DNA of 64,000 nucleotides, taken from Malacoraja senta (Eukaryota). Below the pieces are notes generated by a model. It made no database searches and was not told the origin of the DNA. It saw nothing but the letters and a program-made list of their open reading frames with translations. Position numbers and translations under genes: made by a program. The stretch covers positions 9,426,001 through 9,490,000 of the forward strand of contig CM075991.1 of NCBI GenBank assembly GCA_038087875.1. The letters run 5' to 3'. Shown piece by piece: positions 7,338 to 60,519 of this stretch; the first letter of the stretch is position 1; each line of letters opens with the position of its first letter.

Positions 7338-8494
7338 CTTATCTGTATTCCAGGGATTCACTTTTAACATTGATAAAAAATACATCTCTTGATGCTCCTG
7401 AACACATCATCAGTGATGTAACCTGGGATCATTGGGTGTTTCGGGTCTTTCAATATCAGACACCCTCACCCATGCGACCCAGCCGTGGTTGATCAGACCA
7501 CGACTGGATTCACTTTTAACAAAGGAGTACCAAAAAAAAAAATCCTTTCTAAGCATTTAGACGTTTTACAAAATGTAACAGGTTGAAATCTACAGATCTT
7601 GTGATTTATTTGAAGATAGACACAAAATGCGGGAGTATCTCAGCGGGACAGGCAGCATTGCTGGCTGGTCCACCTGGTGTTACTCTGGAGATCCAAGGAA
7701 CTACAGATGTTGGAATCCTGAGTAAAACTCAAAGTGCTGGAGGAACTCAGCTGGTGAGATGTTATCTGTGGAGGGAATAGATAGGTGGCATATCAGGTCA
7801 GGATCCCTATCCGATCCTGCCCGTCCCACTGAGTTACTCCAGCATTTAGTGTCTATCTTCTGTTTCAACCAGCATCTGCAGTTCCTTCTGACACACTTGT
7901 GATTTATTTGAATGTTTCCGGTGTAGTTTGACCTCAGTCGGTGGACATTAGATGTCATTGAGTCCCTCTGTGTCGGTGTTATTGTACGCTCAGACTATTG
8001 ACATGAGAAATGATGTACTTTGATTTTGGACTTCTGCCAACCTCAACTAGTCTGGCCCACGTGACTACCAACCCAGCAATTCTCTTTCTGAACTGCCACC
8101 TCAGTGCATGGGCATTTAGAAATAGGTGACATCCTATGAATGAGGTGGTTTTTTAAAACTAGGATATACACATTCCCTACACAAAGCACTATCTTGCACT
8201 TGATGAACTAAACATGTTAATGGATGAGATACAACTCGGGGATATTAGTGATGAATGTGCTACAATGGTTTATGACATTGCACCATTATTTTAACATTCA
8301 TTACAAGGAAGCGGAGTGGAGTGCCGTATGCCCACAGTGAGATGTGTGTTACTCATTTTCTGCAACATTATTTTAACTCTTAAGTGACTCGCAGGCAATT
8401 CTGTGAAAGTCAAAAGGTTTGTAAGGCTGTGTTCATGTTTCCACGTAGATATATATCTCAGCACAAGTCCTAGTATGAGGTGCTGATAAGTCCT

Positions 8495-8631
8495 TCTTCT
8501 TATTTCGTGTGGCGTGCACAGCCTAAAGTTGTAGGACAACTTGTTCTATTTGATCTTCCGTTTGTGCACGTCGAGTTGATTGCATTAGTCGAAACAGGGC
8601 GGGCCACGTGAAGGTTGCAATCTTCCTCCCC
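8495..8631 (-). mobile_element. Short retroposon family A (137 nt) starting with an HDV-like ribozyme
   Basis: 12-bp TSD CTGATAAGTCCT at 8483-8494 and 8632-8643, AAG-type 3' tail, second copy at 59704-59838. Confidence 0.85.
8578..8631 (-). ncRNA. HDV-like (CPEB3-type) ribozyme, minimal P4
   Basis: GGGGAGG-AA-GAUUGCA-ACC-UUCACGU-GGC-CCGCCCU-GU-UUCGA-CUAA-UGCAAUC: P1 with G1-U wobble, perfect 7-bp P2, P3/L3, J4/2 with catalytic-position C. Confidence 0.8.
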
Positions 8632-9217: not shown

Positions 9218-9411
9218 TCTTCTTACTTGTCCATCTTCCATGTTTCAAATGTTGACATCGCTGTCATCGTCCGTCCTGAAAAGGACGCAAGCTTCCGGCG
9301 ACAATCAGTGGGAGCCATCACTTGTCACAATAGATGATGGTGGTAGCAGAATTAGCTCAGGATACTTCCAGTTTCCCAGCCCCGCGACGTGGACGCTTCT
9401 GCTATGGGGCC
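9218..9411 (-). mobile_element. Short retroposon family B (~190 nt) starting with an HDV-like ribozyme
   Basis: Highly similar to 20537-20724; similarity ends at ribozyme +1; 3' end AAGTAAGAAGA. Confidence 0.75.
9345..9411 (-). ncRNA. HDV-like ribozyme closely resembling the CPEB3 ribozyme
   Basis: GGCCCC-AU-AGCAGAA-GCG-UCCACGU-CGC-GGGGCU-GG-GAAACUGGAAGUAUCCUGAG-CUAA-UUCUGCU: P1, P2 and P3 fully paired, P1.1 CC/GG available. Confidence 0.85.
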
Positions 9412-10223
9412 GCTGTATGGCTGAAAAATCAGGACCAAGAATCCTTTCCTTGATGAAAACAGGGGTGCTTCCACTCGCCCTTAAATCTTCTCTGGAATGC
9501 GATGAGGCAATGGATGGTTTGCATTTTCATTCCACTGGCTGACGGAGTGGGTGCAGGAGGTCGGACGAGGACACGCAACTGAGAGAATGAAGAGGGACCC
9601 AGTGTGGGAGGGGGGGGGGGGGCGAGCACAGAGGAACCCCTCATTGGGTGGGGGGGGGGAGCAAAAGAACCCGGAGTGGAGGGGGGGGGGGGGCAGCGAA
9701 AGAACAAAGAGTGACCCTTGGTGATGACATTGAACAGTTTGTAACTTTGTCGACTCCCTGCGCCTGGCTGTAAAAGTACTTCCTGTCTTTAACCTTGGAT
9801 GTCCTCATTCTAACAGCTCTGGGTGTGGAATCTCTCCAGGAATTACATCACTCCTCAATCATACATATATTCAAGATGGATACCGCAGGTAGAGACACAT
9901 TATTTATCTGGAATCACCAAACTAATGAGGATAAAAGCACAAAATGATCAAGGCAAGAGGTGACAAGGCTGTCAGTCTTAAAGAGAGGATTGGGATTGAT
10001 TACAGGCCAACTACAATTAGCGTACCGCTTGAAAGGCACTAAGTTTAAATCTGGCTCAATTAGTATTACTCGTGTCTATGAGTCAGAGTGCTGTTGGTTC
10101 AAGTCCCACTTCAGAGAGCTGCACACCAAATCTGTGATGGCACTTTGTTCAATGCTTTGTCTTTTGGATATGAAACTCTGTTAGGGGGTTCTAAAGGTCT
10201 ACAGCAGGTCTTCTGAAGAGTTA

Positions 10224-20536: not shown

Positions 20537-20724
20537 TTCTTTTCGTGTCCATTTTGTTACAAATGTTGACCTCGCTGTCATCGTCCGTCCTGAAAAGGAC
20601 GCAAGCTTCCGGCGACAATCAGTGGAAGCCATCACTTGTCGCAGTAGATGGTGGTGGCAGCAGAATTAGCTCAGGATACTTCCAGTTTCCAGTCCCGTGA
20701 CGTGGACGCTTCTGCTATGGGCCC
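20537..20724 (-). mobile_element. Short retroposon family B, second copy, inserted in an old SINE
   Basis: Short TSD ACTCA at 20532-20536 and 20725-20729; host SINE resumes after the insertion; 3' end CACGAAAAGAA. Confidence 0.75.
20659..20724 (-). ncRNA. HDV-like ribozyme, decayed copy
   Basis: GGGCCC-AU-AGCAGAA-GCG-UCCACGU-CAC-GGGACU-GG-...-CUAA-UUCUGCU, with one mismatch each in P1 and P3. Confidence 0.7.
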
Positions 20725-20993
20725 ACTCAGGCATGGCGAACATGCAAACTCCACATCAAAGGTCAGAATTGCTGGAGCTCTGAGGCAGCGGCACTACCCG
20801 CTGCAGCACCAGGCAGTCAAAACTTTTGTTGGTTTCTTTCCGTCTCCACCGAATATCATCTTTATTAATCACTTCTTATTTAGAGAGAGATACAGCATGG
20901 AAATGGGACCTGAGGTCCACCAAGTCCACGACGACCAACAATTACCCATACACTAGTTCTATCCTGCACACTGGAGACCATCTACAAGTCCAT

Positions 20994-36610: not shown

Positions 36611-38238
36611 ACATTTAGATGGGGCAGAACGGTGAGAGAATGCTGGCGTGAAGCGGTGGCATTGAGATGGATCAGTAGGAGAGGACGAAAATCAAAATGG
36701 CTACAGATTCTGGAAATCTAAAACAAAAACCAATAATGCTGGAAACACTCGGCAGGTCCATGGGACAATAAACAGAGTCAATGTTTCAGGTCAGAAACCC
36801 GTTCTCACCCAGCCCTCAGCTAACAATGACCTGTTTCCTTCATCATCGTTACTTATTTGCATATCTTCCATTCATTTGTTCTATATCTCTCTCTACATCA
36901 CCGTCTCTCACTTCCCTTTCCCCCGACTCTCAGTCTGAAGGAGGGCCTCGGCCCGAAACGTCATCCATTCCTCCTCTCCAGAGATGCTTCTCTGACCCAA
37001 AGTGCTGGAGTAACTCAGCGGGACAGGCAGCATCTCTGGAGAGAAGGAATGGGTGACGTTTCGGGATGAGACCCTTCCCTCCAGAGATGCTGCCTGTCCC
37101 GCTGAGTTACTCCAGCATTTTGTGTCTACCTTCGATTTAAACCAGCATCTGCAGTTCTTTCTTATACATACTGTCTGACTCACTGAGTTACTCCAGCTTT
37201 TTGTGTCAACCTTTAGTAAGAAGTCTTTTTGGAGAAGGACCTGATACTCTGCACTACATTAGATACAGTTCCATGCAATTAAAATTGTACAAATAAGTCC
37301 ATTATAAATTGATCAAATTCTGAGAGTATGAATGTCATTCAGGCACAGAATGCAAAGGGTACCTACGCTACAGCAATGAGAAACGCATACACTGTGGCAA
37401 TAAAAGCCTCTTTACTCTAATTCAATGACACCTTTGAACAGAACCTGAGGGGCAACCATTTTACACAAAAGATGGCAGGTGTATGGAACGAGCTGCCGGA
37501 GGAGGTAGCTGAGGCAGGTACCATCATAACGTTTAAAAAGCATTTGCACAGGTTTGTGTATAGAGGATAGGTTTAGAGGGATATGCGGCAAATGCAGGCA
37601 GGTGAGACTAGCATGTTGGTCGGCATGGGCAAGTTGGGCCGACTGGCCTGTTTCCACACTGTATCACCTCCAACGTTCGGAACACAGTCTTAAGTTGTAA
37701 ACAAACAAGGACTGACAAATTCATGCTTCGATAACCATAAAGGATTGTAAACCAAATTTTATGGCGTAATCCCAATTTACAAGCACAAGAAATTCTTGTC
37801 ATTTAAATCGATCTAAGTCTCAAAGTACATCAAATATAATACACTTACTTCTACACTCATAAAGAAACCAATTAACTTAATAACATTGGCTGGATATTCA
37901 TCCCTGTCAGAAGTGCTAAATATGCTACACCATAACAGTTGTCTCCAGAATTCATTCCATTGTACTGTAGATGAGATTTCTATGACAGGATACAATGCGC
38001 TGACTCAATAACAGCGGGCAAAATCAAAAATGCGACAGATGCTTAAAATCCAAAGCAAAACAGAACATAGAAAAAAAGAACTGCAGATGCTGGTTTATAC
38101 CAAAGATAGTCACAAAGCGGTGGAGTAAATCAGCAGGTCAGGTAGTTATCTACGGAGAAAAATGATGGGTGCCATTTTGGGATCGGGACCCTTCTTCTGA
38201 CCACCAAAGTGCTGGAGTAACTCAGTGGCTACCAAAGA

Positions 38239-40897: not shown

Positions 40898-41206
40898 AAC
40901 TAACTTCAATATATAACTTGAACAAGTAATTCTCAGATCAGCATCAGCTTTAGTTTCATTGTGGTGGTGATGAAAATGATTGAAGAGGGTCAGTCCAAAA
41001 CCAATTAACCTGCAAACCTGTACGTCTTTGGAGTGTGGGAGGAAACCGGAGCACCCGGGGAAAACCCACGCGGGTCACGGGGAGAACGTACAGACAGCAC
41101 CCATAGTCAGGATCAAACCCGGGTCCCTGGTGCTTGTAAGGCAGCAACTCTACCGCTGCGCCACCATGCCCATGAATATTATAAGCCGAATGATCGGTTC
41201 TTGCGC

Positions 41207-41760
41207 TGTTCCCATGTTCCCATGTCCCATGTTGCCATGTTGCATGTTCCATGTTCCATGTTCCCATGTTCCCATGTTCCATGTTCCCATGTTCCCATGT
41301 CCTCATGTCCCATGTCCCATGTTTCCATGTTCTCAGTTTCCATGTTTCCATGATCCCATGTTCCCATGTTCCCATCCCATGTTCCATGTTTCCATGTTCC
41401 CATGTTCCCATGTCCCATGTTTCCATGTCCCATGTTCCCATGTCCCATGTTTCCATGTTCCCATGTCCCATGTCCCATGTCCCATGTTTCCATGTTCCAT
41501 GTTCCCATGTTCCCATGTTCCATGTTCCATGTTCCATGTTCCCATGTTCCCATGTTCCCATGTCCCATGTTTCCATGTTCCCATGTCCCATGTTCCCATG
41601 TTCTCATGTCCCATGTTCCATGTTCCATGTTCCATGTTTCCATGTTTCCATGTCCCATGTTTCCATGTTTCCATGTTCCCATGTCCCATGTTTCCATGTT
41701 CCCATGTTCCCATGTCCCATGTTTCCATGTTTCCATGTTCCCATATTTCCATGTTCCATT
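41207..41760 (+). repeat. Mixed 7/8-bp tandem repeat (CCATGTT / CCCATGT / CCATGTTT)
   Basis: ~550 bp of CATG-anchored units; explains the spurious repetitive ORFs in all frames. Confidence 0.95.
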
Positions 41761-41804
41761 CAACTGCATCAAAGAGAAACTTCACCTGGACCGCTTTCCC
41801 TTCA

Positions 41805-42372
41805 CAAGTTCACAAGTTATAAGAGTAGAATTAGGCCATTTGGCCCATCGATACCACTCCGCCAATCAATCATGGCTGATCACTGCCTCCTAGTCCTGTT
41901 TTCCTGCCTTCTCCCCATAACGCTTGACACCGGTTCTAATCAAGAATTTGTGTATCTCGGCCTTAAAAATATCTACTGACGGCCTCCACTGGGCACTGTG
42001 GCAATGAGTTCTACAGATTAACTACCTTCTGACTAAAGAAGTTCCTTCCTCACCTCCTTTCTAAAAGAGCGCCCTTTAATCCTGAGGTTGTGACCTCTGG
42101 TCCTCGACTCTCCCACCAATGGAAACATCCTTCCACATCCACTCTGTCTATGCCTTCCATTGTTCTGTAAGTTTCAATGAGGTCCCCCCTCAACCTTCTA
42201 AACTCCAGCGAGTACAGGCCCAGTGCTGTCAAACGCTTACTCTTCATATGCTAACCCACCCATTCCTGGAATCATTCTTGTAAATCTCCTCTGCACCCTC
42301 TCCAGAGCCAGCACACCCTTCCTCGGGTATGGGGACAACATTTGCTCACAGTGCTCCAAATGCGGCCTTATA
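41805..42372 (-). mobile_element. CR1-like LINE 3' fragment
   Basis: LGLYSLEFRRLRGDLIETY motif and CR1 3'UTR. Confidence 0.88.
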
Positions 42373-44078
42373 GAGCCTCAACCCTGGTCGCAAACAGAGT
42401 TTCAGTCAATTTGCTGCCCGACTTGCTGCCAACCAGATAGAATAAGAGGCAGCTGCATCCAGACTAATCCTCCACAAAACAGCATCAAATGGGTAATGAG
42501 TTTGCAATTTAATTAATCCCTCACTCAAACTGGAAGAGCAAAGATATTTAACATTTTTGCGATGGCATGTAATCAGTGTACCATAATTAATTTCCTGAGA
42601 AAAAAAAAAAATACGTTAAAGGATTTGGATAATTAGATGCAAATTTGCAGATAATGCCCTTGATTGGAGTGTTGAACAGAAGCCTCAGTCGCAAACTCCT
42701 GCAAGTATCTGACAGATAGCTTGACGTGACAGAAAGAATGTTAAAGCTGTAAGTAACAAGAAAATGCTGGAAATACTCGGCAGCTCAGGCAGCGTAGGTG
42801 GAGAAGGAAACCGAGTTGACATCTCAGATTAATAATCTGTCACCCATACTAGAAGTCCTTAGAAACTTAGATACTTAGGGGCGGCACAGTGGTGGAGCGG
42901 TAATGTTGCTGCCTTACAGCGTCGGAGACCCAGGTTCGACCGTGTTTTCTCCGGGTGCTCCGGTTTCCTCCCGCACTCCAAAGACGTACAAGTTTGTAGC
43001 TTAATTGGCTTTGGTAAGTTGCAAAATTGTTCCCAGTGTGTATAGGTTAGTGTACGGGGTGATCGCTGGTCTCGATGGGCCGAAGGGCCTGTTTCCGCTC
43101 TGCAGCTCCAAAGTCTAAAGTCAATCATATTTTATGCTGCAAGGAAGGGGAGGGTGTAATGGAAAACAGAGGGGATGTCTGTGATAGAGGGGACATTAAA
43201 TGGCGATGGTGGTGTCAGCTAAAGGTGGGTGCCGAAGGCTTGGTGGGAATGTGGGAGGAATAAAAATATATATTAATGTCGGGTTATAGGTTTAAAGTGA
43301 TTGAGGACAGATTTAATAGGAACATAAGTGTCAACATTCTTACACAGAGGATGATGGGTACACAGAACAATCTGCCAGAGAAAGTAGTTGAAGCAGCTTC
43401 AATAACAATATTTGGACAGGTACATGGATAGGATAAGATTAGAGGCAAATGGGTTTAATTTAGATGGGCCATTTTGGTCGGCTTGGACGAGTCGGGCCAA
43501 AGGGCATGTTTCCATGTTGTATGACTCTGTCTCTAGTGTCAATGGGTGGTTGATGATCAGTGTAGATTTGATGGGCCAAAGAGTCTGCTTCTGTTCTGTG
43601 TGACAAGGTGTGTAGGAAGGAACTGCAGATGCTGGAAACCGGCCCTTCGGCCCAACATGCCCATACTGTAGATTAGTGGCTCATGCTATGAGTCATGCTT
43701 TTGTAGTTACGCCCACTAGCTTATCTACTGCACTCGTCAGCCTAAAGTGAACTCTCAAGTGAGAATTTGTAGTTGTTTATTCTAAATAAACAGTGTATAA
43801 CCTGAGGTATACAAAAATGCTGGAGAAACTCAGCGGGTGCAGCAGCATCCATGGAGCGAAGGAGATAGGCAATGTTTTGGGCCGAAACCCTTCTTCTGAT
43901 GTGAGGTCTTTATGCGACTTGATGTGAGGTCTTTATTATTACAAGGACTCTACATCAACACACACCGCCCAACATGTCCCGTCTACACTAGTTCCACCTG
44001 CCTGAGTGTGGCCCATAATCCCATGCTGTATGGCTCTAAGTGAAATGGAGGAAAGCACAGAGTGTTGCAGTATCTATG

Positions 44079-44249
44079 AAGATAGACACAAAATGCTGGA
44101 GTAACTCAGCGGGACAGGCAGCATCTCTGCGGAGAAGGAATGGGTGACGTTTTGGTCTGAAGAAGCGTCTCGACCTGAAACGTCACCCATTCTTTCTCTC
44201 CAGAGATGCTGCCTGTCCCGCTGAGTTACTCCAGCATTTTGTGTCTATC
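44079..44249. mobile_element. Palindromic PLE pLTR-end cassette with hammerhead-like core at 44157-44184
   Basis: Arms of ~70 bp are reverse complements. Confidence 0.75.
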
Positions 44250-59482: not shown

Positions 59483-59703
59483 CCTTTCTTCTGAGAGGGG
59501 AGCTGCTGAAAAGGCTACACTTACCTCGCCCACCCCTGAGGGCACCAAGGGCCAAACACTCAGTATGGGGTTGGGGTCACAAGTACGTTTAACTGTGTCC
59601 AGAAGGGCAAGGATTCAGCATCGGGAAGCCAAGCAAGGCTTTCCATGAGAATCCAGGAGTTTATCAAAGTTCATTTTGCATGGTGCCATCTCACAGATGG
59701 CTA

Positions 59704-59757
59704 GGGGTGTGAGATTGCAACCTTCACGTGGGCCGCCCTGTTTCGACGAATGCAATC
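59704..59757 (+). ncRNA. HDV-like (CPEB3-type) ribozyme, minimal P4
   Basis: GGGGUGU-GA-GAUUGCA-ACC-UUCACGU-GGG-CCGCCCU-GU-UUCGA-CGAA-UGCAAUC. Confidence 0.78.
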
Positions 59758-59838
59758 AACCCGGCGTGCACAATCAAGTAAGATCAAATAGAACAGGTTG
59801 TCCTACAACTTTAGGCTGTGCACGCCATACGCAAGAAG
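59704..59838 (+). mobile_element. Short retroposon family A, second copy
   Basis: Aligns end to end with 8495-8631(-); degenerate TSD ACAGATGGCTA / ACAGATTACTA. Confidence 0.8.
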
Positions 59839-60519
59839 ACAGATTACTAGATTTACTGAATTCAATTTCGCAATCAGCCATAGCTAGAGTTCATTTTAGG
59901 ACGTCTGCCATCTGCACTTTGAAGACTCTTTCAAGGTCATTTTTGGGGGCATTTTTGTGGTGGGGAAAGTGAGGCCCCTAGTTAATGATTGTGGGCTTGC
60001 CTGGTGTGGTTGAACTCATTGTGGAATGGAAGACATTGCTGTCGAGCAATTTAACAGACGTGATTGTCACTAAAAGCTGGAGTAACTCAGTGGGTCAGGC
60101 AGCATCTCTGGAGAAAAGGAACAGGTGACCTTTCTTCAGACGTCTCAAGCCGAAATGTCACCCATTCCTTCTTTCCAGAAATGCTGCCTGACCCGCTGAG
60201 TTACTCCAACTTTTTGTGTCTATCTTCGCTTTAAACCAGTTCCTGCCTACACTTAACAGACATGATTTTCTGCAACTCATTGACTGCGAGGTACCTTGGA
60301 TTGACCTGGGCTTGCTGTTATCATCACAATGTGAGCTGTGGGCTACCGAGTGATCCATCAAAGATGCAGTACACCTTCAAACAGAGACAATGGCCTTCTC
60401 CAGTTATTATAAGGAATCATTAGGCTGAACAAATGTAGTTTGCTTTATTGTTACTTGTACCGAGGGCACATGCTAACCAGTCAGCAGAAAGACAATACAT
60501 GATTACATGATTACAAGCA

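Follow-up and report, generated by a model that had tools for sequence, protein, structure and literature searches.

Background

According to the available text of Kojima (2018, PMC5786205), the only LINEs that make derivatives retaining both of their ends are those of the RTE, Ingi, Vingi and R2 groups, for reasons that are unknown. One example cited there, the derivatives of Vingi-1_EE, retains nothing but the 5' and 3' ends of a compact LINE with one ORF and no RNase H. The accessible sections of PMC13708176 define Vingi elements as compact retrotransposons with a single ORF carrying APE and RT domains and lacking RNase H, and present Vingi-1_Acar as an all-RNA gene writer whose donor RNAs are flanked by both UTRs. 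The corresponding portion of PMC5753468 merely lists Vingi traces. A search of the article literature returned no report of a Vingi ribozyme or of pairing between Vingi ends, and the part of a 2026 ribozyme survey that was accessible contains no mention of "Vingi".

The element considered here lies in a stretch of 64,000 nucleotides of Malacoraja senta DNA, referred to as the window. It belongs to an already known class, and the end-to-end complementarity that it revealed is apparently undescribed. With a probability of roughly two in three (0.68), we read it as a ribozyme-headed internal-deletion derivative of a 3.1-kb Vingi-type LINE, which would pair its two ends in order to be copied in trans.

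Two independent insertions of one family

The element occupies 59704..59838 of the forward strand, ends in an (AAG)n tail (59833..59838) and represents subfamily A1 of a bipartite non-autonomous retroelement. It is bordered by an 11-bp target site duplication (TSD), as the sequence-only reading had recognised, whose left (59693..59703) and right (59839..59849) repeats agree in 9 of 11 positions, a match equalled by a random 11-mer of the window at a frequency of 1.2e-4. A second copy, of subfamily A2, lies on the reverse strand at 8494..8631 within a perfect 11-bp TSD. Pairwise alignment of 59704-59838 to 8631-8498 (-) gave 121 identical positions out of 136 and started exactly at the GGGG of 59704, with no homology between the two copies upstream of that point. 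The claim that they are independent insertions, each beginning at nucleotide G1 of a predicted ribozyme, is supported by these data. Judged by eye, no common upstream flank was seen among 90 fetched copies either. Segmental duplication is ruled out, as the flanks differ and TSDs are present.

Exact matches to an internal 23-mer in the 1.94-Gb genome searched revealed at least 4,577 family copies, with none for the reversed control, and by our divergence-corrected estimate the family numbers roughly 10,000 copies. Two genome searches, one per window copy, scored the best 40 of 851 and of 1,487 candidates, and 30 loci from each were examined. The J4/2 segment reads CGAA in 30/30 of the copies nearest the one at 59704 and CUAA, as in the second window copy, in 30/30 of those nearest the latter. 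What had been taken for variation between individual copies is fixed within each set, and the two window copies therefore fall in different subfamilies, A1 and A2 respectively.

Other differences between the two copies do reflect individual decay. P2 and L3 are the same in both, whereas the P1 mismatch sits at position 7 in the copy at 59704 and at position 5 in that at 8631, and position 29, in the 3' strand of P3, is G in the former and C in the latter. The A1 set has G at position 7 in 28/30 copies and T at position 29 in 29/30, while the A2 set has T at position 5 in 27/30 and T at position 29 in 27/30. Since P1 and P3 are paired in the majority sequence of each subfamily, and no consensus retains the mismatches, those of the 59704 copy are private decay, and descent of both copies from a paired ancestor is upheld. 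The sets were picked for likeness to mutated copies, a bias that runs against a paired majority.

A sample independent of such likeness, the first 30 matches of the 23-mer in genome order, contained 23 A1-like and 7 A2-like copies, whose mean divergence from the reference copies was 3.5% (a figure biased low). A TSD could be scored in 22 of the 30, and 17 of these 22 copies start within 1 nt of G1. The small element thus has the features by which bipartite derivatives are recognised, namely TSDs, a simple-repeat tail and its own amplification. Sequencing-run contigs from four runs span the element but not its window flanks; runs labelled with eight organisms contain part of the stretch.

The window holds other repeats, and those densely flanking the element appear to resemble the repeats of cartilaginous fishes. 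A second small family, B, likewise has a predicted ribozyme at its head; its members are about 200 nt long, share the tail motif and are represented at 9345-9424 (-) and 20659-20729 (-), with 35.2 and 26.4 bits on the Rfam CPEB3 model; for its close copies, the best 40 of 2,034 candidates were scored. A low-complexity tandem array with 8- and 15-nt spacing occupies 40959-41976, and palindromic MITE-like high-copy repeats, at 2148-2282, 37005-37115, 44069-44240 and many more places, account for spurious Rfam miRNA matches. No host gene was found when 86 of the 93 longest open frames were scanned; the single Pfam match, PF09004, is presumably a LINE fragment.

The predicted ribozyme head

The first 54 nt of the element (59704..59757, forward strand) can be folded, according to our own descriptor, as an HDV-like ribozyme without P4. 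The predicted fold comprises P1 (59704-59710/59733-59739), P2 (59713-59719/59751-59757), P3 (59720-59722/59730-59732), the loop L3 (59723-59729) and J4/2 (59747-59750), with the predicted catalytic C at 59747. Two intact copies (L002, L063) and a LINE head (L179) show 7+7+3 pairs in the nested double-pseudoknot order, and the strict form of the descriptor had no match in three shuffled windows; a chance fold is rejected as an explanation of the head. The fold is fully intact in 8 of the 30 position-sampled copies, and C is kept at the first position of J4/2 in 29. The head is, on the strength of the fold, likely an HDV-like ribozyme predicted to cleave itself 5' of G1.

Both window copies fail the strict test. 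The copy at 59704 has lost a pair in P1 (59710) and another in P3 (59732), and its ribozyme is, by the predicted fold, probably poor or dead. The copy is old and decayed, a dead end with two ribozyme pairs lost.

An internal promoter in the head could also set the precise 5' start, the fold then being a weak or vestigial ribozyme. Pr77 of L1Tc is at once promoter and ribozyme and some well-folded SIDER ribozymes have no activity (both from the accessible part of PMC4035085); moreover, P4 is missing and the family A heads match no HDV-type or small-RNA model of Rfam. Against this stands the conservation of all helices and of the J4/2 C in the LINE and in both subfamilies, together with HDV-like heads built from different helix sequences in sister LINEs, and minimal HDV-like ribozymes devoid of P4 are active, as stated in the available text of PMC10879173. 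We consider a promoter-only role quite improbable. Sister LINE heads, at 63.8 and 42.8 bits, exceed the Rfam CPEB3 gathering score of 35, and the P1 pair 5/32, U5-A32 in the LINE, has its counterpart in U5.G32 of the small element, so that pairing is kept. A Pol III SINE with a tRNA, 5S or 7SL head is ruled out, because the head is the LINE 5' end and matches no Rfam small RNA.

Two observations can be added. One small-element copy (L298) has a LINE-type head (A32, CUAA) and possibly represents the oldest subfamily. The 63.8-bit score on the mammalian CPEB3 model belongs to the head of LINE family F6 (L333:336-419; also L331-L334 and L350), with identity reaching into P2, which suggests that the CPEB3 ribozyme derived from such an element. 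L331 and L332 have the 5' part of the ribozyme tandemly repeated and contain open frames of some 1,010 aa.

The partner LINE

An autonomous LINE sharing both head and tail, which the sequence-only reading had proposed to look for, is present in the genome. It was traced through loose contig ends, where another sequence carries the identical tail; the tail-adjacent pattern taken from them had 105 genome matches, and in the 20 loci read an ORF ends in a Cys/His motif and a stop codon, followed by the common tail. The LINE measures about 3.1 kb and has a single ORF encoding an endonuclease and an RT. Pfam identified PF14529 (Exo_endo_phos_2) and PF00078 (RVT_1) in four of its segments, and no RNase H family in these or in four full-length relatives. 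Head and tail lie inside one TSD in two loci (L148, L150), and a third (L135) has the head from near nt 8 together with the whole 3.1-kb body. No intact copy was found, every copy examined being broken and about 90% alike.

Compared with these three loci, the small element consists of LINE nt 1-79, a short junction and the last 36 nt (100-135 of the element), that is, both ends of one LINE with the middle deleted and no ORF. The junction region (59773..59802) contains a few bases of the LINE head and a short tandem duplication, together with the 5' side of an inner hairpin. The LINE-derived tail (59803..59832) comprises the last ORF codons, the stop (59812-59814), the 3' arm discussed below and a conserved tail motif of the AYWCG type (59827-59831). 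Several other head-tail joins occur in runs of related organisms, and most of them fall after the 5' arm. In L135:2020-2100 no stop interrupts the ORF frame across the ribozyme, where J4/2-P2 contains an ATG; a second ATG follows about 65 nt later.

A length of about 3.1 kb, APE and RT domains and the lack of RNase H fit the Vingi definition of PMC13708176, and the partner LINE is, by these sequence features, likely of Vingi type. Its closest relative is a 1,019-aa protein with 71% identity, relatives being mostly proteins of about 1,000 aa on contigs of about 3.2 kb. The RT tree, built without named Vingi, Ingi or RTE rows, joined 19 rows in one clade (100/99) apart from the two-ORF LINEs of the genome. 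The latter, used as outgroup, we take to be I-like, L2-like and CR1-like. At least seven Vingi-like LINE families were distinguished (L135, L184, L189, L193, L199/L346, L333 and L347), each with its own HDV-like head; copies of some are 97% alike, indicating recent activity.

The 50 loci recovered by a genome search with the endonuclease family belong to other LINE types and lack the head; a stray tail fragment lies beside one of them (L102). Scanning metagenomes with a single protein yielded nothing, whereas an alignment yielded 80 loci, six of which offered both a usable head and a usable tail and were included in the complementarity test; the others lacked one end or a recognisable head or tail motif. 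No such loci were found in viral contigs, and a PDB search returned distant RTs only. Three partial loci with a Vingi-like RT (L328-L330), on short contigs of one archaeal bin, are probably eukaryotic contamination.

Complementarity between the two ends

A stem and an inner hairpin in the 3' half of the element had been put forward as a recognition structure for the RT. The predicted fold contains both, the stem GGCGTGCACA/TGTGCACGCC at 59763-59772/59817-59826 and the hairpin at 59795-59811, and the 3' 81 nt fold well alone (z -3.08; 1 of 200 shuffles as good), the whole 135 nt folding no better than shuffles (z -1.32) with a program that cannot draw the pseudoknot. What did not stand is its inheritance as a 3' unit. 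The 5' arm (59763..59772) comes from the LINE 5' end, 5 nt past P2, and the 3' arm (59817-59826) from the LINE 3' end, 3 kb away, just before the motif, which is ATACG in the LINE. The stem joins sequences that the parent LINE carries 3 kb apart, one at either end, and represents an end-to-end match. The LINE tail has no counterpart of the inner GTTGT arm, which arose at the deletion junction, so the 5' side of the hairpin does not exist in the parent; nor can the arms act there as a local 3' hairpin, since 5' truncation of LINE copies is common. A local 3'-UTR hairpin of the LINE is refuted, and the recognition structure originally proposed is very improbable. It survives only as a protein binding the end-to-end helix, which abuts the conserved tail motif, where the protein may well bind.

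The match recurs across the clade. Fourteen elements were compared, including six further LINE families, small family B (which also shows end complementarity) and the six metagenome elements with both ends. The sum of duplex energies of own pairs was -184.3, compared with -108.9 +/- 11.6 for permuted partners, and none of 200,000 permutations was as good. The corresponding values for the first 11 elements were -140.4 and -91.8 +/- 10.0, and 4 of 200,000 permutations did as well; because the window size and the offsets had been set after inspecting these 11, only three elements constitute a blind test. At least four of the first five pairs formed in 12 of 14 own pairs and in 26 of 182 foreign pairs, and moving the 3' anchor by 1, 2 or 3 nt reduced this count to 5, 1 and 1 of 14. 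Internal LINE windows matched the 3' arm equally well at 0-19% of positions.

For the blind test, the rule that the 5' arm lies 3-6 nt past P2 and the 3' arm ends before the AYWCG motif was fixed beforehand, and 20 more loci then fetched provided three new families. All three fit: F6 with nine perfect pairs, F5 with 9/10 (head and tail of different copies being joined) and F7 with five pairs plus an extension. Against 26 foreign pairs, F5 and F7 beat all and F6 all but two. Sisters in the tree (L227/L230, F5/L254 and F4/F7) keep the match with different letters, and A1 has changed an A.C mismatch of the LINE to G-C. Exceptions exist: L222 has no end pairing, the duplexes of F2 and L253 have weak energies, and F3 agrees in its energy but fails the five-pair rule. 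At the level of sequence, the complementarity is register-specific, linking bases 3-6 nt past P2 to those just before the tail motif.

The strand on which it would act is a separate matter. It could operate on the cDNA, or be a binding motif repeated within the element: the 3' end of the new cDNA would repeat the motif found at the 3' end of the RNA, and with its help the protein would attach the 5' end or initiate the second strand. Under RNA and DNA parameters alike, antisense duplexes are indeed as good as their sense counterparts (mean z -2.33 versus -2.09; the sense strand has the better energy in only 4/14), and the A.C mismatches of F1 and F5 would become G.T on cDNA. G.U pairs, however, fill the RNA helix in L235, L227, L230, F2 and L253, and inversion priming beside the 5' arm, described below, occurs on RNA. 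The end duplexes have G.U in nine columns versus A.C in five, which is not decisive, and the A.C to G-C change of A1 improves either strand. Action on cDNA or as a repeated motif appears unlikely, and pairing between the RNA ends is preferred.

Inversions of the LINE 5' end

Copies of the partner LINE frequently contain an inversion that takes in the ribozyme head (L125, L127, L132, L139, L142, L202 and others). Seven copies with an inverted 5' piece were compared, from loci chosen by their tail or middle and not by their 5' end. The outer end of the inversion falls at nt 73-81, adjoining the 5' arm, in five of the seven, and the inverted piece reaches nt 1-9 in six. Uniform priming would give this pattern with a probability of about 2e-6, the choice of window being allowed for. 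Inversions of 5' ends are explained by the twin-priming model, under which these positions are consistent with a 5' end kept close to the insertion site. Other families did not show the pattern, 36 loci containing two inversions, neither at the head.

A proposed life cycle

The preferred reading can be viewed as a sequence of steps beginning with an internal deletion in a likely Vingi-type LINE, which would have produced the small element. A read-through host transcript would cleave itself before G1, freeing the 5' end of the element, and the two arms would then form an RNA helix holding that end at the insertion site. The LINE protein, acting in trans, would recognise a template with both ends and carry out target-primed reverse transcription, and copying into a staggered nick would generate TSDs of 8-15 bp. 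Deletion derivatives would keep both ends, we infer, because of this helix. A broader proposal, that the RNAs of Vingi-type LINEs in general form a panhandle, its helix beginning about 4-5 nt past the ribozyme and ending at the tail motif, and that the protein reads both ends together, seems to us evenly balanced.

A conserved yet sequence-variable end match offers a mechanism for two-ended derivatives and, if true, would explain why this clade spawns two-ended mini-elements. It would likewise tell how templates for Vingi gene writing, in which both UTRs are used, should be designed. In addition, the family provides a predicted natural HDV-like ribozyme of very small size in an animal, which in principle could cut host transcripts.

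Comparison with known systems

The Vingi-1_EE derivatives share the two-ended architecture, end pairing not being mentioned for them in the portion of PMC5786205 that was available. The SIDEs of Drosophila R2 (PMC3414825, available sections) resemble the present element in combining an HDV-like ribozyme with a LINE 3' end, in having no Pol III head and, as proposed here, in being mobilised in trans. They are, however, specific to rDNA sites, rare and longer (529 bp in R2Dwi_SIDE), whereas the present element is dispersed, 135 nt long, present in thousands of copies and associated with an APE-type partner. The pairs NARTc/L1Tc and RIME/ingi belong to the sister clade and likewise have a ribozyme at the exact 5' end of long and short elements; as described in the accessible text of PMC4035085, their head is the 77-nt Pr77, which includes P4, and their hosts are trypanosomatids. 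Ingi, according to the available part of PMC13708176, has the RNase H that the present partner LINE lacks. Finally, the minimal HDV-like and theta ribozymes (PMC10879173, in the part at hand) also lack P4 and have the catalytic C first in J4/2, but they come from metagenomes and from phages, where they lie beside tRNAs, whereas the present one heads an animal retroelement.
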